Below are positions 38,890 to 49,110 of a stretch of DNA of 64,000 bases, in pieces. Made by a program: the position numbers and the translations under genes. Position 1 is the first letter of the stretch. Every line of letters begins with the position of its first letter. The DNA is from an uncultured Hyphomicrobiales bacterium. GTDB lineage: Bacteria; Bacteroidota; Ignavibacteria; Kapaibacteriales; UBA2268. The stretch spans positions 7,219 to 71,218 of the forward strand of contig CAYYIP010000007.1 of NCBI GenBank assembly GCA_964472015.1, in the 5' to 3' direction. The notes beneath the pieces were generated by a model that saw only the letters and a list, made by a program, of their open reading frames with translations, was not told the origin of the DNA and searched no databases.

Positions 38890-40467
38890 ATGTTAAAAAA
38901 ACAAGCAAAAGAAAAAGCAATAGAAGTAGCCTTGTGGGAAACAGCAAATAAATTGCGTGGAAGTGTTGAACCTTCGGAATATAAGCACGTGGTATTGGCG
39001 TTGATTTTTTTGAAGTTTGTGAACGATAAATTTGAGGAGCAACGACAAAAACTAATTAATTGTGGCAAAGAGAAATACATTGAAAACTCGGACTTTTACA
39101 ATAAGGACAAAGTCTTTTTTCTAAAAGAAGAGACCCGTTGGAAATATATTGTTAGTAAAGCTCGCCAAAACGATATTGCGTTGATAATTGATTCCGCTTT
39201 ACACACTATAGAAAAAGACAATAAAGTTCTGAAAGGTGCATTGCCTGATAACTATTTTTCACGTCTTGGACTTGATACCTCTAAATTAGCTGCTCTTATC
39301 AGCGAAATAGATAGCATATATATACTCAAGGACAAAGAGCAAGATGTTATTGGACGTATTTACGAGTATTTTCTGAGTAAGTTTGCCATTGCTGAAGGAA
39401 AAGGGAAAGGTGAGTTTTACACGCCCAAAAGCATTGTAAATTTAATTGCCGAGCTGATAGAGCCTTACAAAGGTTTTATTTATGATCCATGTTGCGGTTC
39501 GGGCGGAATGTTTGTGCAGTCTATCAAGTTTATTGAAGCACACCACGGCAATCAAAAAGAGGTTTCCATTTACGGACAGGAATATACGAACACAACGTAT
39601 AAATTGGCGAAAATGAATCTTGCCATTCGAGGCATTTCTGCTAATTTAGGCGAAAAAGCCGCTAACACTTTTAGCAACGATTTACATAAAGATTTAAAAG
39701 CCGATTTTATTATGGCAAATCCTCCTTTCAACCAAAAAGATTGGCGAGCAGAAAACGAACTTTTAGACGATCCTCGCTGGAAAGGTTACGAAGTACCACC
39801 CAAAAGCAACGCTAATTATGGTTGGATACTTCACATGGCATCTAAGCTTTCGGGAAATGGTGTAGCAGGATTTCTTTTAGCAAACGGAGCATCGAGCGGT
39901 GGCGGTGATGAGTATAAAATACGTAAACAGTTGATTGAAAATGATTTGGTTGAAGCTATCTTGATTTTACCACGAAATATGTTTTACACAACCGATATAA
40001 GCGTAACTCTTTGGATATTGAATAAAAACAAAAAAGAATACGTAAGGGCGTATGGCGATATACCTCAACGAAATTACCGAAATCGACAAAAAGAAATTCT
40101 TTTTATGGATTTGCGGGAAATGGGCGAGCCGTTTGAGAAAAAGTACATACAATTCTCTGAAAAAGATATTAGGAAAATAGCTGATAATTATCATAACTGG
40201 CAATGTACGGGTGAATTGAATTCGCCATATCAAGATATTCCAGAATTCTGCTATTCCGCAGGTATAGAAGAAATTAGAGAGAAAGATTATTCGCTTGTAC
40301 CGAGCAGATACATAGAATTTGTAAATCGTGATGAACAGATTGATTTTGACGAAAAAATGAAAACTTTACAGCAGGAAATTGGTAAATTATTACAAGAAGA
40401 AAAAAAATCGCGAGAAGAATTGTTAGCTGTTTTTAAAAATTTAGGTTATAAAATTGAGTTAAAATGA
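38890..40467 (+). CDS. hsdM: Type I restriction-modification system methyltransferase subunit
   Basis: HsdM N-terminal domain (LWETANKLRG); SAM motif DPCCGSGGMF; catalytic NPPF (IMANPPFNQKDW). G+C is clearly above the genome background. Confidence 0.9.
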   Translation: MLKKQAKEKAIEVALWETANKLRGSVEPSEYKHVVLALIFLKFVNDKFEEQRQKLINCGKEKYIENSDFYNKDKVFFLKEETRWKYIVSKARQNDIALIIDSALHTIEKDNKVLKGALPDNYFSRLGLDTSKLAALISEIDSIYILKDKEQDVIGRIYEYFLSKFAIAEGKGKGEFYTPKSIVNLIAELIEPYKGFIYDPCCGSGGMFVQSIKFIEAHHGNQKEVSIYGQEYTNTTYKLAKMNLAIRGISANLGEKAANTFSNDLHKDLKADFIMANPPFNQKDWRAENELLDDPRWKGYEVPPKSNANYGWILHMASKLSGNGVAGFLLANGASSGGGDEYKIRKQLIENDLVEAILILPRNMFYTTDISVTLWILNKNKKEYVRAYGDIPQRNYRNRQKEILFMDLREMGEPFEKKYIQFSEKDIRKIADNYHNWQCTGELNSPYQDIPEFCYSAGIEEIREKDYSLVPSRYIEFVNRDEQIDFDEKMKTLQQEIGKLLQEEKKSREELLAVFKNLGYKIELK

Positions 40468-42440
40468 ACGAAAAGCAAATAAATCCTTTTGAATTAGATG
40501 ATGAGTATGTTATATACTCACTCATAAACGAAGAATTTTTACCGGAAGAGTACCATGAACTTGAATATAAATCCGGTAAAGATGGATTTCCAAAAGAGAT
40601 TTGGAAAACATATTCAGCCTTTGCCAACACAAATTCTGGTATTATTATCATTGGTATAAAAGAGAAAAGAGGTGTTTTTCTAATTGAGGGATTGACAGAA
40701 GAACAAATTTCAAATTATAAAAAGCATTTTTGGGACAGCTGCAACAATCCGAATACCGTTAGTGTCAATCTTTTGAGTAACGAAGATATAAAAGTAATTG
40801 AGACAAATTCAAAAAAACTGTTAGTTATTCGAGTTCCTTTCGCTCATCGTACCAAAAGACCGGTTTTTCTTACACGAAATCCATTTGGAAACACGTACAA
40901 ACGCAACTACGAAGGCGACTACAGATGTACTGATGACGAAGTAAGAAGAATGTTAGCTGAAGGCGGCACAGAACTTAAAAGAGATAACTTGCTTTTAGAA
41001 AATTTCACGATAGACGATTTAGATCCTGTTAGTATTCGTCAGTTTCGTCAATTGTTTTCATCTACAAGACCGGGGCACCCTTGGCTTGCTTTAGAAGATA
41101 AAGACTTACTAAAGAAACTCGGAGCTTATCGCATTGACCGAAAAACTGGACAAGAAGGAATTACGCTTGCTGGGCTGTTAATGTTTGGCAAAGGAGACAG
41201 CATACGAGAACAAGATGCTTTACCTGATTACTTTCCTGATTTTAGAGAGCGTTTGTCAATAGATGAAAAAGTGCGATGGACAGATCGTATTTATCCCGAC
41301 GGAACTTGGGAAAGTAATTTACTTCAATTTTATTTGAAAGTATTGCCCAAATTATCATCTACATTACCTAAACCATTTCGCTTAGATAAAGATGAACGTG
41401 TTGATGAAACACCTGCTCATATTGCGTTGCGTGAAGCTTTTGTAAATACATTGGTGCATACTGATTATTTGTTAAGTGGTAACATTATCATTGAACTTGA
41501 TACCGAACAATTTGTATTTTCAAATCCCGGTACATTACTCGTTTCTTTGGAACAATATTATGCGGGAGGAGTGAGTGAGTGCCGTAATCCTGCATTACAA
41601 CAAATGTTTATGCTGATTGGTCGTGCTGAAAAAGCTGGTAGTGGAGTGGACAAAATTATGTCAGGCTGGCAAGATTCTCATTGGCGAAAGCCTTTTCTTG
41701 TGTTAGAAAACCGACCTGATAAAGTTAAACTCACTTTACCTATGTTTAGCGTGTTGCCTGAACAAGTACTAAACGAGTTAAATACTATTTATGGCGATGT
41801 GAGTCATTTTAGTTCCGACGAACTAACTGCACTTTCTTTCTGTCTGATAGAGGGTTCAATTTCCAACCACCGCTTGCAATATGTGTTAAATATGCACAGT
41901 TCAGACATTACGAAAATGCTTAAAAAATTGTGTGTGGGTGATTATTTAGAAGCTGAAAATTATGGTCGCTGGACTACTTATAAAATTAAACATAAGGTTG
42001 CAAGCTCAGGCGGAAAGGTTGACACCTCAGGCGAAAAGGTTGCAAGCTCCGATAGAAAGGTTGCAACCTCAGGCGAAAAGGTTGCAAGCTCTGGTGGAAA
42101 CCTTGCAAGCTCTGGTGGAAACCTTGCAAGCTCTGGTGGAAACCTTGCAAGCTCTGGTGGAAACCTTGCAAGCTCAGGCGGAAACCTTGCAAGCTTAACT
42201 GAACTTCCTAAAAGGATAAGTATAGAAAAAATGGAAGATATAATTATGCGAATTTGTAAGGATAATTACGTTAAAAAAGAAGACCTTGCAACATTATTGA
42301 ACCGTTCAGAAAATTATATAAGAAATGAAATTTTACCTAAAATGATAAAAGAGAAAAAAATAGAGAAAAAATATCCGTTTACGCTTAATCATCCTGAACA
42401 AGCTTATAAAACTACAGAGGAATATGCAGAAAAACTATAA
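40464..42440 (+). CDS. COG2865-type Schlafen-like ATP-binding protein / putative transcriptional regulator (AlbA_2 + HATPase_c_4-like + C-terminal HTH), inserted between hsdM and hsdS
   Basis: N-terminal ELEYKSG..IWKTYSAFANTNSGIIIIGIKEKRG matches AlbA_2. TLVHTDYLLSGNIIIELDTEQFVFSNPGTL matches HATPase_c_4. ATGA overlap with hsdM. An internal 7-aa repeat region sits ahead of the C-terminal domain. Confidence 0.75.
   Translation: MNEKQINPFELDDEYVIYSLINEEFLPEEYHELEYKSGKDGFPKEIWKTYSAFANTNSGIIIIGIKEKRGVFLIEGLTEEQISNYKKHFWDSCNNPNTVSVNLLSNEDIKVIETNSKKLLVIRVPFAHRTKRPVFLTRNPFGNTYKRNYEGDYRCTDDEVRRMLAEGGTELKRDNLLLENFTIDDLDPVSIRQFRQLFSSTRPGHPWLALEDKDLLKKLGAYRIDRKTGQEGITLAGLLMFGKGDSIREQDALPDYFPDFRERLSIDEKVRWTDRIYPDGTWESNLLQFYLKVLPKLSSTLPKPFRLDKDERVDETPAHIALREAFVNTLVHTDYLLSGNIIIELDTEQFVFSNPGTLLVSLEQYYAGGVSECRNPALQQMFMLIGRAEKAGSGVDKIMSGWQDSHWRKPFLVLENRPDKVKLTLPMFSVLPEQVLNELNTIYGDVSHFSSDELTALSFCLIEGSISNHRLQYVLNMHSSDITKMLKKLCVGDYLEAENYGRWTTYKIKHKVASSGGKVDTSGEKVASSDRKVATSGEKVASSGGNLASSGGNLASSGGNLASSGGNLASSGGNLASLTELPKRISIEKMEDIIMRICKDNYVKKEDLATLLNRSENYIRNEILPKMIKEKKIEKKYPFTLNHPEQAYKTTEEYAEKL
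41994..42196 (+). repeat. In-frame 21-bp tandem repeat (about 9.7 units), with 4 consecutive perfect copies of aaccttgcaagctctggtgga
   Basis: Units read directly from the sequence (aaggttgcaagctcaggcgga ... aaccttgcaagctctggtgga x4 ...). They encode KVASSGG / NLASSGG heptads. The repeat creates spurious ORFs in other frames and on the opposite strand. Confidence 0.9.
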
Positions 42441-43551
42441 GCGATTAGGCGATTATATACAAGAATTCAATGTCCGTAACACAGATTTAGCTATTACCAA
42501 TCTTTTAGGTGTGAGTATAGAAAAAACTTTTATACCATCCGTAGCAAATCTTAATGGCGTGGATTTATCTGTATATAAAATATTGAAAAAAGACCAGCTA
42601 GCTTGTAATTTAATGATCGTAGAGCGTGATAAAAAACTTCCTGTAGATTTGTATAGAGAAGAAAAACCAGCTATAGTTTCTTCTGCATATTATGTTTTTG
42701 AGCCAAAAAACAAAGAAGAATTATTACCTGAATATTTAATGATGTGGCTTTTTCGACCTGAAAGTGATAGGTATTTTGGTTTTATTAGTGGCGGAGATGT
42801 AAGAGGTGGAATTACTTGGGAGACATTTTGCAGTCTTCCAATTAAAGTCCCAAAAATTGAAAAACAACGAGAAATCGTAAAAGAATACAAAACAGTAGAG
42901 AGACGCATACAGATAAACGAAGAGCTCTGCAAAAAATTAGAAGAAACAGCACAAGCGCTATATAGAAAATATTTTGTAGAAGATATAGACCCAGAAAATT
43001 TACCGGAAGGGTGGAGATGGGGAAAGTTAGAGGAGGTTGCTAAGATTACAATGGGACAATCACCAGTGGGAGAAAGTTATAACACTGATGGAATTGGAGA
43101 AATATTTTATCAAGGTAGAAGCGATTTTGGAATGCGATTTCCCACAATTAGAATGTTTACAAATGAGCCTACCAAAATGGCTAAAAAAGATGATATTTTA
43201 TTAAGTGTTAGAGCACCTGTTGGGGACATAAATATTGCACCACACAATTGCTGTATTGGTAGAGGATTAGCAAGCATAAGAAACAAGAAAAAACAGAAGT
43301 CTTATATGTTTTATCTAACAAAAAATTTAGATACAATTTTTAATATAGCAGACGGAGCTGGAACAATCTTTGGAAGTATTAATAGAGATACACTTTTGAA
43401 TATTGACGTAATAATTCCTAATGAAGAAGTTATTCAATTATTTGAAAAAAAAGTTTCAACAATTGATAAGCTGTATGAATATAATGATATAGAAACGCAA
43501 AAGCTAAAAGAATTACTATCTTTGTTGTTGGCAAAGATGGGGAGAGAATAA
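42424..43551 (+). CDS. hsdS: Type I restriction-modification system specificity subunit
   Basis: Two target-recognition domains separated by, and ending in, the conserved HsdS helical regions (..EELCKKLEETAQALYRKYF.. and ..QKLKELLSLLLAKM). Overlaps the upstream gene by 17 nt. Confidence 0.8.
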   Translation: MQKNYKRLGDYIQEFNVRNTDLAITNLLGVSIEKTFIPSVANLNGVDLSVYKILKKDQLACNLMIVERDKKLPVDLYREEKPAIVSSAYYVFEPKNKEELLPEYLMMWLFRPESDRYFGFISGGDVRGGITWETFCSLPIKVPKIEKQREIVKEYKTVERRIQINEELCKKLEETAQALYRKYFVEDIDPENLPEGWRWGKLEEVAKITMGQSPVGESYNTDGIGEIFYQGRSDFGMRFPTIRMFTNEPTKMAKKDDILLSVRAPVGDINIAPHNCCIGRGLASIRNKKKQKSYMFYLTKNLDTIFNIADGAGTIFGSINRDTLLNIDVIIPNEEVIQLFEKKVSTIDKLYEYNDIETQKLKELLSLLLAKMGRE

Positions 43552-43557
43552 GAAGAT

Positions 43558-44076
43558 ATGAATTTTATTTTAAGATTTTTTTTTACAATTAGCGCTGTAT
43601 CTTTTTTTGTTGTTGTTTATTTAGTACAAAATAAGATAAATCCATTTGATGAGGTTCTTGGAAAATATGCGTGGTTAATTTATATAGTGTACGTACTTTT
43701 TCCATTTATACTGACTTGTATATCACTGCGAATTTGTAAATTATTAGCCAGAAACTCGATTAAAAAAATACAATCAATAGAACCATCGAATAATGATTTC
43801 CTTGCCACCTATCTTGCGTTCTTTTTTGTTGCATTAAGTATTAAAGGAACAATTACTTTTTGGATAGTATTTGGAATGACGGTTCTTTTTACTTTTGTTT
43901 CAAGAGTATCATACTTTAATCCGGTTCTTTTAGTATTTGGTTACAATTTTTATTATATAGTTACAGGGGAGAATGTAAAGATTATGTTAATTAGCAAACA
44001 AAAATTAAAAGCTCCGAATAATTTTGATCATAAAGATGTAGGACGCATCAATGATTATACATTTATAGATATTTAA
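43558..44076 (+). CDS. Hypothetical integral membrane protein (4-5 TM, 172 aa) inside the type I R-M locus
   Basis: Hydrophobic helices FFTISAVSFFVVVYLV, WLIYIVYVLFPFILTCISL, YLAFFFVALSI, FWIVFGMTVLFTFV and PVLLVFGYNFYYIV. No recognisable motif. Starts 7 nt after the hsdS stop. Confidence 0.6.
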   Translation: MNFILRFFFTISAVSFFVVVYLVQNKINPFDEVLGKYAWLIYIVYVLFPFILTCISLRICKLLARNSIKKIQSIEPSNNDFLATYLAFFFVALSIKGTITFWIVFGMTVLFTFVSRVSYFNPVLLVFGYNFYYIVTGENVKIMLISKQKLKAPNNFDHKDVGRINDYTFIDI

Positions 44077-44079
44077 AAT

Positions 44080-44889
44080 ATGGCAGAATTAATAGTAAAA
44101 TACAAATCTGAATACAAAAATGTATTGAAACAAGAAGACAATATTATTGAAAATATTGATCTAACTAATGTAGAACAAATAGATTTTACAACAAGCTATA
44201 AGCTTGAAGATAATGAATGGTTTAAAATTACTGATTTTAGCAATCAAGACTATGTTGTTGAAATATGTAATGAAAATTTCAGTACTGCAAGTCTCGTGCA
44301 AATAGTTAACAAGGAGTATGAAGATATTAAAGAAATAGTTATTTTGCAGAACGAGCAGATGCATTTCCAAAGGGTTACTCCTTCTTATTATGTAAATAAG
44401 AAAACTTTTTTAGACTATTCAGGAAGTCCCAAAGTAGTAGAACACAGAAAACAGATCGAGATAAAAAAAGAATCTGATGCTGTATATTTGTTAGAAACTG
44501 ACACATTGTTATTTAAAGATATATCTAAAATAAAACCTATTTTTAAAGGAATAGAGATGTTGCATCGAGAAGCAACACAAGAGGAAGTTAACACATTTAT
44601 GGAATATGATTTCATTTCAACGTTAAATTTTGACTCTAAACGTGTAGGTGTTCAAAATCGAAAAAGAATAGCTGATATTGGGGTAAAATATGCTAATCTT
44701 TCAAGCGAGAAACAAAAAGGACTAATAACTTATGCAAAAGAGAAATCAGGAATTGATATAGAGGATGGCAAATTTCTAATTAGAAATGATAACGATTTGA
44801 AAAACTTGCTTTACGCAATGGATCAACGTTATTATTATGCTGATATATATGAAGAAAATAGAATTGCTAACTCCATTCGTATTGTGTAA
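44080..44889 (+). CDS. Hypothetical soluble protein (269 aa), translationally coupled to the membrane protein
   Basis: Starts 4 nt after the upstream stop. No catalytic motif that I can recognise. Charged, Lys/Glu-rich. Confidence 0.55.
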   Translation: MAELIVKYKSEYKNVLKQEDNIIENIDLTNVEQIDFTTSYKLEDNEWFKITDFSNQDYVVEICNENFSTASLVQIVNKEYEDIKEIVILQNEQMHFQRVTPSYYVNKKTFLDYSGSPKVVEHRKQIEIKKESDAVYLLETDTLLFKDISKIKPIFKGIEMLHREATQEEVNTFMEYDFISTLNFDSKRVGVQNRKRIADIGVKYANLSSEKQKGLITYAKEKSGIDIEDGKFLIRNDNDLKNLLYAMDQRYYYADIYEENRIANSIRIV

Positions 44890-44960
44890 CGGGTTATTTA
44901 GCAAGTTCATATTATAAAGTAAAATACGGATTTATGAATTATTTTTAAATTAATATTTAA

Positions 44961-45926
44961 ATGATCAATTTTCATGCACATAATCGCAAAAGTATTCGTC
45001 TAAAAGGATACGATTATTCGCAAGAAGGATTGTATTTTATAACGATTTGTTGTCAAGATAAAATTTGTAGGTTTGGACATATTGAAAACGACGAAATGAT
45101 ATGTAACCAATATGGAATTGTGGCATATAATGAATGGATAAAAACGTCACAAATACGTTCCAATATTACGTTGCACGAATTTGTTGTAATGCCCAATCAT
45201 ATCCACGGTATTATTGAAATAAATCGCGATGCGGAATTATATTCCCAAAACCGTGGTTGCGAATTGCGTTCGCCAAATTGTAGTGGCGAATTGTATTCGC
45301 CCGTTCCAAAGGGCGTATTCGATACGCCCCAACAGCCCGATTTCGATACGTCCGTTCGTGGTTGCGAATTTTATTCGCCAAATTGTAGTGGCGAATTGTA
45401 TTCGCCCATTCCAAAGGGGGTATTCAATACGCCCCAACAGCCCGATTTTGATTTGTCCGTTCGTGGTTGCGAATTGCGTTCGCAAAATTGTGGTTGCGAA
45501 TTGCATTCGCCAAATTGTAGTGGCGAATTGTATTCGCCCATTCCAAAGGGGGTATCCGATACGCCCCAACAGCCCGATTTCGATACGTCCGTTCGTGGTT
45601 GCGAATTGCGTTCGCAAAATTGTAGTGGCGAATTGTATTCGCCCGTTCCAAAGGGGGTATTCGATACGCCCCAACAGATTGATTTCGATACGTCCCGATT
45701 GCGATCACCGTCGCAAACGGTTGGTGCCATCGTTCGCGGATACAAATCGGCGGTTACAAAACAATTGAATGCGTTGGGAATGACCGAAAAATTATGGCAA
45801 CGCAATTATTACGAACATATTATACGCAATGAACAATCATATATACATATTTCTGAATATATTCGCAACAATCCCATACAATGGATAAACGATAGATTTT
45901 ATGATTATGAAATTTACAGAAAATGA
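44961..45926 (+). mobile_element. IS200-like REP-associated tyrosine transposase (RAYT) whose ORF carries an in-frame insertion of a REP array
   Basis: N-terminal part with HuH motif VVMPNHIHGII. C-terminal part with the RAYT Tyr motif LWQRNYYEHIIRNEQSY. Together these make about 165 aa, the normal RAYT size. They are separated by about 150 aa encoded by palindromic repeats. Confidence 0.7.
45252..45700. repeat. Four tandem about 105-bp units (unit 3 carries a 27-bp internal duplication), each holding three REP-like hairpins (gcgaa-ttgcg-ttcgc; ggcgaa-ttgta-ttcgcc; gggcgtat-tcg-atacgccc)
   Basis: Direct reading: cgtggttgcgaattgcgttcgccaaattgtagtggcgaattgtattcgcccgttccaaagggcgtattcgatacgccccaacagcccgatttcgatacgtccgtt repeated 4 times with point differences. 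Open in several frames on both strands. Confidence 0.9.
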
Positions 45927-48900
45927 ATTAGAAAAGGCATTTATCAAATTATTAGAGCAAGAGGGCTATACGCATAGTGCAGGTGCTTCGGTATCACGTT
46001 CCTCAATGAACGAGGTGCTGATAAAAGAAGATTTGCGTAGGTTTTTGCATTCGCACTATAAGGCAGATGAGCTGACGGGAAACGAGGTAAATTTCATTAT
46101 CCAGCAACTTAACTCGCTTCCTGCCAGCGATTTATATGAAAGTAATAAACGGTTTATGCAGATGCTTTCAGACGGTTTTATTCTGAAAAGAGATGACCAC
46201 AAGCAGAAAGATCTTTACATTGAGCTTATCAACTATAGATTTTTGAAAAAAAATCTACATCTTAAAACAGAAAAATATACTTCTATAGTTGCGGAAAATA
46301 ATGACGACAATAACATCTACAGATTTGTAACTCAATTGGAAATCGTAGGGAATGAAAAACGTATTCCCGATGGAATTGTTTATGTAAACGGTTTACCATT
46401 AGTGGTTTTTGAATTTAAGACTCCCGTTAAAGAAGAGGTTACTATTTATGATGCTTACAAGCAACTTACGGTGCGTTATCGTCGCGATATTCCCGAACTT
46501 TTCAAGTACAACGCTTTTTGTGTTATCAGTGACGGCGTAAACAGCAAAGCAGGTTCATTGTTTGCCTCTTACGAGTTTTATTACGCATGGAGAAGAATAG
46601 CAAGTTTAGCAAAAGATGTTGACGGAATTGATAGTATGTTTACCCTAATTAAAGGAGTTTTCGACAAAAACCGTTTTCGAGACATACTTCGTAATTTTAT
46701 CTTTTTCCCCGATACAGAAAAAAATGAAAGTAAAATCGTTTGTCGTTATCCTCAATATTACGCTGCCCGTGCTTTGTTCGAAAATATCAAGCAAGCTCAA
46801 AAACCTCACGGCAACGGAAAAGGCGGAACCTATTTCGGAGCAACTGGCAGTGGCAAGAGCTTCACGATGCTTTACCTTACACGTTTGCTGATGAAAAGCG
46901 AACATTTTGCTAGTCCAACTATCGTACTTATTACAGATCGTACCGATTTAGACGATCAGCTCTCTGCACAATTTGTAAATGCCAAGAGATTTATAAGTGA
47001 TGATACAGTGCAAAGCGTTGAAAATCGTGCTGATTTACGCGAGAAGCTACAAGGCAGACAGAGCGGAGGTGTTTTTCTTACTACTATACAGAAATTTACT
47101 GAAGATACGGAATTGCTTACCGAACGCAATAATGTGATTTGTATTTCAGATGAAGCACATCGCACACAAACAAATCTCGATCAAAAAATCCGTATTACCG
47201 AACAAGGAGTTACTAAATCATTTGGCTTTGCTAAATATCTGCACGATTCTTTGCCTAATGCTACTTACGTTGGTTTTACTGGAACACCTATAGATGCTAC
47301 ATTAGATGTTTTCGGTCCGGTGGTAGATTCCTACACAATGACCGAATCAGTTAAAGATGAAATTACTGTGCGTATCGTTTACGAAGGCAGAGCTGCTAAA
47401 GTAGCTTTAGATAACAGTAAATTAGAGGAGATTGAACGTTACTACGAAGCAGCTGCGGAAGCTGGAGCTAACGAATATCAAATTGAGCAAAGCAAAAAAG
47501 AGACTGCTAAAATGAATGCTATTCTTGGCGACCCGAAACGTTTACAAAGTGTTGCCGAAGATTTTGTAGAACATTACGAAAAACGTGTTTCGGAAAAAGC
47601 AACGCTGAAAGGTAAAGCTATGTTTGTTTGTAGCAACAGAGAAATAGCTTATGATCTGTTTAAGCGTATTATTACACTTCGTCCCGAATGGAATGAAATA
47701 CGTGCAGCAGAAGAAGGAGCAGAACTTTCCGATAAGGATAAAAGGGAATTAAAACCTATAGAGCGAATAAAAATGGTAATGACACGGTCAAAAGACGACG
47801 AAAAAGAACTTTGGGATTTGTTAGGGACAAAGGAATATAGAAAAGAGCTTGACAGACAATTCAAAAATGAAAAATCTAACTTTAAAATAGCTATCGTGGT
47901 TGATATGTGGCTCACAGGATTCGACGTGCCTTTTTTGGATACAATTTATATAGACAAACCAATACAACAACATAATCTAATACAAACTATTTCGCGAGTA
48001 AATCGTCGAGTGGAAGGAAAAGATAAAGGGCTTGTGGTTGATTATATCGGCATAAAGAACAAGATGAATTTGGCACTTGCTCAATACGATAAAATTGAAG
48101 GTGATAACTTTGAAGATATTTCTCAATCACTTGTGATAATGCGAGAGCATTTGGATTCGTTGAAACATTTGATGCATACGTTCGACGATACAAAGTATTT
48201 TAAAGGTTCAAATTTAGAACAACTAAATACACTTAATTTGGCTGCTGAATTTGTACAACAAACCAAAGAAACTGAAAGCCGATTTATGGGACTAACAAAA
48301 CGTTTGAAAGCTGCTTATGATATTTGTGTGGGAAGCGAACAAATAACACAGAAAGATCGAGATTATGTACATTTTTATATAGCTATTCGTTCCATTGTTT
48401 TTAAACTGACTAAAGGCGATATTCCCGATGTGGTACAAATGAATAACCGAGTACGTCAGATGATTGAAGAAGCTTTACAAAGTGACGGTGTTGAGGAAAT
48501 ATTAAAAATTGGCGATGAAACTAAAAGTGAACAAGATTTGTTTGATGAAAAGTATTTGGCAAAAATCAATAAGATAAAGCTACCTAATACGAAAATTAAA
48601 CTCTTGCAGAAGCTCTTAGCAAAAGCTATCGGGCAACTGCGAAAAATTAATCGCATAAAAGGAATTGACTTTAGCCATCGAATGCAAAAGTTAGTGGATC
48701 AATACAACGACCGTTCAGTAAACGATATTTTGCGAAGCGAGGTATATGAAGAGATGGCTGAAAAACTTACCGCTATGATTTGGGATGTACACGAAGAATT
48801 TTATGCCGGCGAAAAGTTGGGAATTGATTTTGAAGAAAAAGCCTTTTACGATATTCTAAAAGAATTGTGTGTGAAATACGATTTTAAATATCCCGACGAC

Positions 48901-49110
48901 AAAATGATAAAGTTGGCTAAAAAAGTCAAAGAGCTAGTTGATTTTATAGCCAGTTATCCCGATTGGAATAAGCAAGAGAATATAAAATCAGAGTTGAAAG
49001 CTGGATTAATTGTGTTGCTTGATGAATACAATTATCCGCCTGTTGAACGAGATGAAGTTTATGTAGAAATTTTTGAACAAGCGGAGAATTTTAAGAAAAA
49101 TAGAGAATAA
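45901..49110 (+). CDS. hsdR: Type I restriction-modification system endonuclease subunit
   Basis: HsdR N-terminal domain (MKFTENELEKAFIKLLEQEGY); SF2 helicase motifs including Walker A GATGSGKS and DEAH (ICISDEAHRTQ); 1069 aa. Overlaps the RAYT 3' end by 26 nt. Confidence 0.9.
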   Translation: MIMKFTENELEKAFIKLLEQEGYTHSAGASVSRSSMNEVLIKEDLRRFLHSHYKADELTGNEVNFIIQQLNSLPASDLYESNKRFMQMLSDGFILKRDDHKQKDLYIELINYRFLKKNLHLKTEKYTSIVAENNDDNNIYRFVTQLEIVGNEKRIPDGIVYVNGLPLVVFEFKTPVKEEVTIYDAYKQLTVRYRRDIPELFKYNAFCVISDGVNSKAGSLFASYEFYYAWRRIASLAKDVDGIDSMFTLIKGVFDKNRFRDILRNFIFFPDTEKNESKIVCRYPQYYAARALFENIKQAQKPHGNGKGGTYFGATGSGKSFTMLYLTRLLMKSEHFASPTIVLITDRTDLDDQLSAQFVNAKRFISDDTVQSVENRADLREKLQGRQSGGVFLTTIQKFTEDTELLTERNNVICISDEAHRTQTNLDQKIRITEQGVTKSFGFAKYLHDSLPNATYVGFTGTPIDATLDVFGPVVDSYTMTESVKDEITVRIVYEGRAAKVALDNSKLEEIERYYEAAAEAGANEYQIEQSKKETAKMNAILGDPKRLQSVAEDFVEHYEKRVSEKATLKGKAMFVCSNREIAYDLFKRIITLRPEWNEIRAAEEGAELSDKDKRELKPIERIKMVMTRSKDDEKELWDLLGTKEYRKELDRQFKNEKSNFKIAIVVDMWLTGFDVPFLDTIYIDKPIQQHNLIQTISRVNRRVEGKDKGLVVDYIGIKNKMNLALAQYDKIEGDNFEDISQSLVIMREHLDSLKHLMHTFDDTKYFKGSNLEQLNTLNLAAEFVQQTKETESRFMGLTKRLKAAYDICVGSEQITQKDRDYVHFYIAIRSIVFKLTKGDIPDVVQMNNRVRQMIEEALQSDGVEEILKIGDETKSEQDLFDEKYLAKINKIKLPNTKIKLLQKLLAKAIGQLRKINRIKGIDFSHRMQKLVDQYNDRSVNDILRSEVYEEMAEKLTAMIWDVHEEFYAGEKLGIDFEEKAFYDILKELCVKYDFKYPDDKMIKLAKKVKELVDFIASYPDWNKQENIKSELKAGLIVLLDEYNYPPVERDEVYVEIFEQAENFKKNRE

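Follow-up and report, generated by a model that had tools for sequence, protein, structure and literature searches.

How does a gene for a DNA-processing enzyme come to hold, inside its own reading frame, a row of hairpins of the type that its enzyme family uses as substrate? The question is raised by an open reading frame (ORF) for 321 residues in a 64,000-nucleotide stretch of contig CAYYIP010000007.1 from an uncultured bacterium, here called the window. An initial annotation took this ORF for a REP-associated tyrosine transposase (RAYT; REP, repetitive extragenic palindrome) that had been invaded in frame by a REP-like array. Quentin, Siguier, Chandler and Fichant (2018, BMC Genomics 19:475) describe a feature unique to TnpA_Y1 subclass 2.4, the RAYT group 4 of Bertels et al. 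2017: its beta3-alphaC loop carries REP insertions that vary in length and keep the reading frame. In-gene REPs are the normal, published state of this subclass, and the window gene is a large example of a known oddity. Our analysis confirms the in-frame REPs but, as the trait is normal for subclass 2.4, not their reading as an unusual invasion of one gene; a recent one-off event of this kind is ruled out by the family-wide presence of REPs in the loop.

A RAYT of Subclass 2.4

The ORF very probably encodes a TnpA_REP protein, a Y1 HuH single-strand DNA nuclease of subclass 2.4 (group 4), and the same high confidence extends to the general picture given here. In a check set beforehand, the N- and C-terminal parts were compared with RAYT and IS200 profiles. 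Pfam Y1_Tnp (PF01797) matches residues 56-93 with 26.8 bits, above its gathering cut-off of 23, and the NCBIfam equivalog NF047646 (REP_Tyr_transpos, E. coli type) matches two stretches that correspond to both halves of the protein with 63.7 bits. The latter score stays below the equivalog cut-off of 80, which fits a protein of subclass 2.4 and not of subclass 2.2. Without its insert, the protein has as its top sequence match among solved structures 4ER8, the E. coli TnpA_REP bound to a REP, and a Foldseek search with the AlphaFold core likewise ranks 4ER8 first, followed by the TnpA proteins of IS608 and ISDra2 (ranks 2-28). The AlphaFold model, built on 22 sequences, is confident in the core, with predicted local distance difference test (pLDDT) values of ~80-94 for residues 21-90 and 71-90 for residues 250-320. 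Residues 92-246, between the HuH strand and helix 250-271, have pLDDT values <50 and are without secondary structure, and the loop is predicted to be disordered. The RAYT identity given by the initial annotation thus stands.

Two of its motif assignments do not. The HuH motif, placed at the start of the ORF, lies at residues 80-82, and the C-terminal segment taken for the catalytic tyrosine segment is the guide-binding W motif, as the LWQRNYYEHIIRN segment aligns to the GTAG-binding W94-R104 stretch of E. coli TnpA_REP in 4ER8. Within residues 278-305, which read LWQRNYYEHIIRNEQSYIHISEYIRNNP, W279, Q280, E285, H286 and R289 align to the GTAG-binding residues W94, Q95, E100, H101 and R104 of the E. 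coli enzyme, Y300 to the catalytic Y115, and N304 to the metal ligand N119 (4ER8 alignment; Messing 2012). A catalytic tyrosine in NYYEH is ruled out by the alignment with Y115 of 4ER8; it is Y300, 16 residues further on, in YIRNNP. The conserved GTAG-binding residues would serve in recognition of the predicted cognate REP. All invariant residues of the family in alignment A2 are kept (HuH, W279, Q280, Y300, N304), and NHIH, LWQ and YIRNNP fit the subclass 2.4 signature NH[IFV]H, WQ and YIxNNP (Quentin 2018 Table 1). Judged from its sequence, the gene has every defining feature of subclass 2.4. Flanking REPs, which are missing here, are typical but not defining; most subclass 2.4 members have canonical REPs within +/-1000 nt (Quentin et al. 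2018). The RAYT itself was unmatched in PADLOC, and a Pfam PDZ_assoc match in the repeat peptide (21.1 bits, below its cut-off) was dismissed as low-complexity noise.

Thirteen Hairpins in One Reading Frame

Tandem Repeats Finder reports one array at 45242-45695 (454 bp) with periods of 27, 105, 132 and 237, all of them multiples of 3, and matches of 89-93%. It can be read as four composite units at 45253-45357 (105 nt), 45358-45462 (105), 45463-45594 (132) and 45595-45695 (101). The initial annotation had four tandem units of roughly 105 bp over about 450 bp; the number and the overall length hold, but the third unit is 132 nt long, with one additional 27-nt module, and the fourth is 101 nt long. 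Each unit contains the three short palindromes that had been described, here types A, B and C (Table 1). Type A follows the pattern GTGG-T-TGCGAA(T)..TTCGC(C/A) in five copies, type B is perfect in 4/4 copies, and type C, which is inverted, follows the pattern GGGCGTAT-NNN-ATACGCCC then CAAC in four copies. One type C copy, 45311-45329, is perfect and is the 8-bp stem named earlier as the strongest palindrome; the remaining copies (45417-45433, 45549-45565 and 45654-45670) have one mismatch each.

The frame is open throughout, and the middle of the 321-residue protein (residues ~98-245) is repeat-encoded, as originally proposed. The 12 hairpins scored in the scan all begin at codon position 1, and the 13th (45258-45274, type A; not in the scan) has the same phase by its coordinates. 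Nine hairpins have a GT[AG]G foot and four are inverted copies, all in frame. The hairpin patterns had 0 matches in 100 shuffles of the window, the array folds as single-stranded DNA (ssDNA) with z = -5.05 against shuffles, and its GC content is 0.50, compared with 0.25-0.40 in the flanks. The predicted beta3-alphaC surface loop holds an array of the enzyme family's own substrate type, short hairpins on a GGCG(A/T)AT stem with GT[AG]G as guide foot, in which forward (A, B) and inverted (C) copies alternate in the manner of bacterial interspersed mosaic elements (BIMEs) and of the REP doublets known as REPINs. Other long ORFs also run over the array, one in another + frame and three in - frames; in the third + frame the TAG within GTAG acts as a stop. 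The claim that these open frames explain the tangle of overlapping ORFs is borne out, except that only two of the four cover the whole array. The junction peptide LRSPSQ, conserved across homologues, is encoded by a 6-bp hairpin TTGCGA-TCACCG-TCGCAA at 45699-45716, which is paired in the ssDNA fold.

Rfam gives no match at E <= 1 in 44000-47000, and the hairpins are not accounted for by a known RNA family. There is no REP copy outside the RAYT ORF within 1 kb of the gene. The sole other REP-like copy in the window is a probable decayed REP in hsdM, 4.7 kb upstream of the RAYT.

Table 1. Features of the RAYT gene, its hairpin array and the operon around it (window positions).
Feature	Position	Strand	Basis
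RAYT / TnpA_REP gene, probable subclass 2.4 (group 4), intact 321-aa ORF	44961-45926	+	ORF list, Pfam Y1_Tnp, NCBIfam REP_Tyr_transpos, ~8000 homologues, 4ER8 top fold match
Catalytic core, N-terminal half (beta1-alphaA-alphaB-beta2-beta3), residues 1-91	44961-45233	+	pLDDT 81-94 (residues 21-90); 0.8% divergence from L001
HuH motif H80-I81-H82 in MPNHIHGII (residues 77-85)	45198-45206	+	N79, H80, H82 invariant in alignment A2
Decayed leader hairpin GGAAT-TAT-ATTCC, encodes AELYSQ	45233-45245	+	sequence reading; paired in ssDNA fold
In-frame REP/BIME-like array: 4 units, 13 hairpins (5 type A, 4 type B, 4 type C), residues ~98-245	45253-45695	+	repeat, hairpin, fold and GC evidence
Type A REP, GTGG-T-TGCGAA-TTGCG-TTCGCC; other hairpins 45363-45379, 45468-45484, 45495-45511, 45600-45616	45253-45274	+	hairpin scans; GT[AG]G foot
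Type B REP, GTAG-T-GGCGAAT-TGT-ATTCGCC; other perfect hairpins 45390-45406, 45522-45538, 45627-45643	45280-45301	+	hairpin scans
Type C REP, inverted, GGGCGTAT-TCG-ATACGCCC then CAAC (degenerate CTAC foot)	45311-45334	+	hairpin scans
Core, C-terminal half (alphaC, beta4, alphaD), residues 246-321	45696-45923	+	pLDDT 71-90; 0/205 mismatches against L001
W motif, W279-Q280 ... E285-H286 ... R289	45795-45827	+	phmmer alignment to 4er8_A; Quentin Fig. S11; Messing 2012
Y motif YIRNNP, Y300 = Y115, N304 = N119	45858-45875	+	4ER8 alignment; Y300, I301, N304, P305 invariant in A2
RAYT 3' end / hsdR start codon region, 26-nt overlap	45901-45926	+	ORF list, HsdR domains; overlap also in L001, L002, L095
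HsdM	38890-40467	+	profile searches
Probable decayed REP of this family, read in frame within hsdM, GTAC-G-GGTGAAT-TGA-ATTCGCC, encodes QCTGELNSP	40205-40226	+	one-mismatch match (0.02 expected per window)
Schlafen/AlbA_2-HATPase_c_4 protein	40464-42440	+	profile searches
HsdS	42424-43551	+	profile searches
KwaA (Kiwa)	43558-44076	+	PADLOC
KwaB (Kiwa)	44080-44889	+	PADLOC
HsdR	45901-49110	+	HsdR domains

The Loop in Related Genes

A homologue search over 5.8 billion proteins gave ~8000 homologues, and in 24/24 of those inspected (177-332 aa) a repeat-rich insert occupies the same loop. These inserts consist of motifs like GELHSP, GECNSP, GVCDTP and GVFDTP and range from ~30 to 177 aa. Among the 120 best homologues, which span 177-332 aa, the window RAYT has one of the longest arrays. 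The in-gene REP arrangement is a trait of the whole subclass, and it is either ancestral to the family or constantly renewed in it.

The DNA beneath these peptides is that of published REPs. The window hairpins have the GT[AG]G foot, which is the foot consensus given by Quentin et al. 2018 for subclass 2.4, and the GGCG..CGCC stem base. Two REPs listed for the subclass in Table S1 of that study, GTAGTGGCGTATATCATACGCCC and GTAGGGGCGTATTGCATACGCCC from Bibersteinia, have the architecture of the type B and type C hairpins of the window. As predicted, a canonical REP, GGTAGGGGCGAATTGCATTCGCCC, codes for GRGELHSP in related genomes; this forward REP at the start of the loop, in the form found in the closest clade, recurs in Bacteroidota, Chloroflexota, Cyanobacteria, Pasteurellaceae and others. 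An inverted REP at the end of the loop (GVCDTPLR) is documented in the closest relatives, where GGCGTATGCGATACGCCCCTAC, with CTAC as its foot, codes for GVCDTPL(R/Q), and the copy number between the start and end REPs varies freely. Other clades read the REP in the second permitted phase, in which GTAGGGGCGAAAAATTTTTCGCCCCTAC gives VGAKNFSPL, and the third phase leads to an in-frame TAG.

Probable Constraint on DNA Rather than on Peptide

Is the loop shaped as a peptide or as DNA? Among the 120 best homologues, the loop pattern [EV]xx[ST] occurs as E..S 328 times, V..T 145 times, E..T 29 times and V..S 8 times, which corresponds to an odds ratio of 205, or 92 with each distinct 8-mer counted once, the counts not being phylogenetically independent. 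The covariation mirrors base pairing: the Glu codon GAA pairs with the TTC that spans xAT-TCG, and the Val codon GTA pairs with TAC. Since the covariation matches the pairing of the stem, the loop peptide is a read-out of the hairpin.

The same hairpins can be followed inside and outside the genes. Related loci comprised 82 fetched loci in addition to the window, the counts by locus were made on 80 GTDB loci, and the loop was located with a hidden Markov model built from alignment A2. The density of perfect hairpins of >=7 bp, in a count that rests on 33 loci, is 13.2/kb in the loop, compared with 1.33/kb elsewhere in the gene and 0.98/kb in its flanks. GGCG..CGCC hairpins (82 loci and the window) occur at 1.47/kb in RAYT ORFs and at 0.088/kb outside them, and 51/63 in-gene hairpins are footed with GT[AG]G or C[TC]AC. 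Hairpins of this form are found in the gene in 42/80 loci, outside the gene in 39/80 and in both places in 25/80. An identical stem and loop inside and outside the gene is present in 13/25 of the latter loci, in comparison to 8/600 pairs in a cross-locus control, and 23/59 footed extragenic copies are no more than 300 bp away from the gene.

The type B REP of the window array, GTAGTGGCGAATTGTATTCGCCC, also has close counterparts away from RAYT genes. A near-identical 22-mer that covers type B, with a TGY loop, is present in 12 metagenome contigs without a RAYT in reach; the loop is TGC in 11/12 and TGT in the window. These copies lie mostly between genes, one exception being an in-frame doublet in hsdM (L094). 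They take the form of single copies, of inverted doublets of the type GTAG-hairpin ... hairpin-CTAC (L084, L094), and of a tandem array (L088). The array at L088:3200-3400, present in L089 and L090 as well, is extragenic and contains at least four GTAG(G/T)GGCGAATTGCATTCGCCC REPs with a spacing of 37-39 nt. The spacings of this non-coding array (37, 39 nt) are free of the multiple-of-3 rule by which the coding arrays are bound. Because related genomes have identical copies outside the gene, the in-gene hairpins are probably part of the genome's REP population.

These findings bear on the proposal that the repeat region is selected as protein, for example as a disordered linker or an interaction module, with the palindromes as a by-product of its codons. 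The frame and codon phase are kept in 13/13 copies, and the motifs GELHSP and GVCDTP recur across homologues. Nevertheless, the proposal is highly improbable: the E..S / V..T covariation has no protein rationale and fits base pairing exactly, the same DNA hairpins with GTAG feet are found between genes, one and the same kind of REP yields RGELHSP in one codon phase and the unrelated VGAKNFSPL in the other, and the insert is predicted to be disordered and varies from ~30 to 177 aa.

Turnover of the Array between Close Relatives

The gene is also present in two independent ENA assemblies, L001 and L002, where its array is comparable and in frame; both give an identical version of 329 aa. A misassembly, with REPs from outside the gene collapsed into it, had been named as a way in which the repeat region could mislead, and 105-nt repeats with 89-93% identity are indeed hard for short reads. 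This explanation can be considered extremely unlikely in view of the two agreeing assemblies, the unit-specific substitutions that the units bear, and the family-wide and published nature of the trait.

The comparison with L001 also provides a measure of how fast the array changes. From codon 7 into hsdR, the flanks of the array differ by 4/660 mismatches and the core is 99.6% identical, while the array itself has 48 mismatches in 435 aligned bases in addition to indels of 27, 24 and 27 nt. The array thus diverges ~25-fold more than its flanks between near-identical strains, with indels in frame only; it turns over much faster than the flanks and does so in frame. At some junctions in the array, the beginning of a type A module runs into the end of a type B module within the common GCGAATTG..TTCGCC core. 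The loop of L095 holds a single perfect GTAG..CTAC doublet, together with several decayed relics, RMGELYIP and RMDELHTK among them.

We propose the following mechanism. The loop would lie away from the active site and would tolerate any disordered peptide, which makes it a candidate permissive site, and because of this tolerance purifying selection on the enzyme would filter array variants for their reading frame only. Such frame selection is suggested by the repeat periods and inter-strain indels, which are all multiples of 3, and by the two codon phases in use, which avoid the in-frame TAG of GTAG. The hairpins may be kept or renewed at the DNA level by duplication, inter-repeat recombination and exchange with extragenic REPs. 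The array would grow, shrink and reshuffle quickly through recombination or replication slippage between near-identical hairpin cores, cleavage and rejoining by the RAYT itself possibly contributing, and old REP copies would decay into coding relics. Whether ordinary recombination or slippage, rather than RAYT catalysis, is the main driver of array change has about even odds. Among the options offered at the outset, namely a pseudogene, a regulatory arrangement or a tolerated loop insertion, the last fits best, and a regulatory role is possible.

Several observations weigh against the general picture. The breakpoints in the array lie in common hairpin cores, as ordinary homologous recombination or slippage would give, and RAYT activity is not required for them. 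The gene can be lost: in a sister lineage (L096-L099, 11 contigs; L096:1066-1760) the RAYT is frameshifted near GMTEKLW, and its C-terminal half with the catalytic tyrosine continues in another frame. Only 7/13 hairpins of the window are perfect and 6/13 are imperfect. Pattern scans of the other 63 kb of the window found 0 extragenic REP copies, and an active REP population is not demonstrable from the window alone. The copy number of the 105-nt repeat may be inexact in a short-read assembly.

The frameshifted sister lineage, the imperfect hairpins and the lack of extragenic REPs in the window also speak for a different account, in which the gene is a decaying relic with an ORF still open by chance and the array is junk gathered after the loss of function. 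The survey of related loci adds that the RAYT is split or truncated in ~16/80: in 4 of these the halves lie in different frames, and the others are truncated, some of them where the contig ends. In the window, however, the ORF is intact with all invariant residues present, and the near-identity of the core to L001 is accompanied by array changes through in-frame indels only. Both halves are kept in one ORF in ~64/80 related loci despite variable arrays, and the periods are all multiples of 3, in contrast to the 37 and 39 nt of the extragenic array. A pseudogene is therefore an improbable description of this locus, and a tolerated, frame-filtered loop array is the reading that we retain.

A RAYT within a Restriction-Modification Operon

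The RAYT lies inside a composite type I restriction-modification (R-M) and defence operon at 38890-49110, in which HsdM, Schlafen/AlbA_2, HsdS, KwaA, KwaB, RAYT and HsdR are all encoded on the + strand. The Kiwa genes have PADLOC scores of 53-56 bits and a GC content of 0.25-0.30, compared with 0.30-0.43 in hsdR. Sister contigs have the order HsdS-RAYT-HsdR without Kiwa, and the RAYT-hsdR junction is found in L001, L002 and L095-L099. The homology between the window and these Kiwa-less relatives starts abruptly at RAYT codon 7 (window 44961-44978 and L001:727-744), the first six codons and everything upstream being unrelated; gain or loss of the Kiwa cassette therefore had its breakpoint inside the 5' end of the RAYT, with a new start supplied.

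Similar neighbourhoods recur. At least 13/80 GTDB subclass 2.4 loci (16%) have a same-strand gene for HsdM, HsdS or HsdR no more than a few kb away (L007, L010, L012, L013, L020, L023, L035, L049, L052, L060, L065, L071 and L081, with the RAYT at ~10001 in most). They come from Cytophagales, Flavobacterium, Aureispira, Nodosilinea, Histophilus, Geobacter, Nitrosomonas, Desulfosudis, Chloroflexota, Omnitrophota and others, and the R-M-linked RAYTs are scattered over a rough neighbour-joining tree. In these loci the RAYT often directly adjoins or overlaps an hsd gene, and the order HsdM-Schlafen-like-...-RAYT-HsdR is common to the window, L049 (Geobacter) and L060 (Nitrosomonas). The HsdR partners come from different families, HindI-like and EcoR124-like. 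According to Pfam, the commonest upstream neighbour families are Methylase_S, N6_Mtase and Eco57I, HSDR_N is present in 6/63 downstream neighbour genes, and Cas3 lies directly downstream of the RAYT in two loci (L021:1723-4164 and L063:10846-13086). Other downstream neighbours include a type IIG R-M fusion enzyme (L038:10593-12593), UvrB (L022:10385-12430) and Mfd (L056:11051-14242). About 10/63 downstream neighbours are superfamily 2 (SF2) DNA helicases or translocases, HsdR included.

REPs with the GT[AG]G-GGCG form are also found in frame in hsdM itself, in the window as a decayed copy after the YHNW motif, and in L013, L094 and L060. L013 has a six-copy REP array (L013:7049-7435) at the hsdM loop homologous to that of the window copy, in an hsdM that appears frameshifted, and this loop is short in L049 and L081. 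The doublet GRGVSHTPNNKGECNSPLP (L094:8373-8430) lies in another hsdM loop, and a double-foot REP in L060 (L060:4571-4600) is read in frame as VGAKNFSPL.

Type I systems number ~0.62 per genome in the survey of Oliveira et al. 2014 (29.5% of 4743 systems, 2261 genomes), so a random 20-kb neighbourhood would hit one in well under 1% of cases by a rough estimate. The observed 16% is far above this random expectation, which is a rough estimate without a matched control family, and the linkage is to be taken as a lead and not as a result. No report of a link between RAYTs and type I R-M systems was found in an incomplete literature search, and Quentin 2018 and Bertels 2017 are without R-M context.

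Within operons, REPs are known to influence how stable an mRNA is and how it is translated. The array might thus be a cis-acting regulatory element of the type I R-M operon that tunes HsdR synthesis or mRNA stability, with its copy number acting as a volume control, a possibility that is compatible with a tolerated loop array. In its favour are the position of the RAYT between hsdS/Kiwa and hsdR with a 26-nt overlap with the latter, the recurrence of the RAYT-hsdR junction among the relatives named above and of same-strand placement in type I R-M operons of several phyla, and the hypervariability of the array between strains. We nonetheless regard it as unlikely. About 80% of subclass members with in-gene REPs are not beside R-M genes, and therefore in-gene REPs cannot owe their existence to the control of hsdR. 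In L096-L099 hsdR is intact beside the frameshifted RAYT, from which it follows that the RAYT is dispensable for that operon. Moreover, no terminator-like signal above chance was detected, in an uninformative scan that gave 2 terminator-like sites with 1.9 expected and 22 promoter-like sites with 14.6 expected.

A further suggestion is that subclass 2.4 RAYTs with in-gene REP arrays are recurrent functional passengers of defence operons and not free-standing domesticated transposases, to which we would assign only a small chance. Two mechanisms can be imagined. The hairpin-rich ORF might tune the expression of the downstream translocase-nuclease, or the HuH ssDNA-hairpin nuclease might cooperate with or back up the SF2 translocase in a PrrC-like manner, which echoes the suggestion of Bertels et al. 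2017 that RAYTs and REPINs act against foreign DNA.

Significance and Comparison with Known Systems

The in-gene REPs of subclass 2.4 have been known since 2018 and hence are of low intrinsic novelty; the link to R-M operons is apparently unreported. For annotation, recognition of the arrangement avoids calling such a gene a pseudogene, a misassembly or a new repeat protein, and it accounts for the overlapping ORFs. The locus is a clean, large example for studying the upkeep of in-gene REPs by selection or by constant renewal, and it bears on whether the enzyme cuts its own gene and on the rate of array turnover, with three in-frame indels between near-identical strains. The recurrent placement in type I R-M operons across phyla, the Cas3 neighbours and the REPs in hsdM are a lead to a defence-linked or regulatory role of domesticated RAYTs.

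Accessory genes embedded in type I R-M operons have a precedent in the PrrC gene, which lies between hsdS and hsdR in E. coli. The window RAYT resembles PrrC-type genes in this position and in its strand, in an operon that also holds Kiwa and Schlafen/AlbA_2 genes, but differs from them in that the RAYT is a pseudogene in a sister lineage with an intact hsdR. With the TnpA proteins of IS200/IS605 elements (IS608, ISDra2) it has in common the Y1 HuH fold and the predicted recognition of an ssDNA hairpin with a guide tetranucleotide. Unlike these elements, it has neither insertion sequence ends nor tnpB, is present as a single copy in the window with KwaB and HsdR as neighbours, and carries the motifs of class 2 rather than those of subclass 1.1.

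The E. coli TnpA_REP (subclass 2.2; PDB 4ER8; 'REPtron') is the best match in both sequence and fold, and the HuH, tyrosine and GTAG-binding residues align. The identity in the fold alignment is nevertheless 12%, and the beta3-alphaC loop of the E. coli enzyme is short. As in the REPs and BIMEs of E. coli, the predicted substrate is a hairpin with a 5' GTAG and the REPs alternate in orientation, but those of E. coli are longer, have a bulge and lie strictly in extragenic DNA, where they flank the gene. The general REPIN/BIME pattern of forward and inverted REP doublets is matched by B and C, and the 20-40 nt palindrome with a GT[AG]G foot by GTAG-T-GGCGAAT-TGT-ATTCGCC-C and its variants. In contrast to REPINs, the window units are coding, in frame and spaced by multiples of 3, with 0 extragenic copies in the window.

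The closest likeness is to subclass 2.4 itself, which is abundant in Bacteroidetes and Cyanobacteria and scattered in other phyla. The window gene departs from published members in its composite unit with three hairpins, in the lack of flanking REPs within 1 kb, which most of those members have, and in its type I R-M operon, a context not discussed by Quentin 2018. It agrees with them in the signature motifs, in the variable beta3-alphaC insert of short DNA repeats, in the GT[AG]G foot and G-C-rich stem base of these repeats, and in the keeping of the reading frame by the in-gene REPs.

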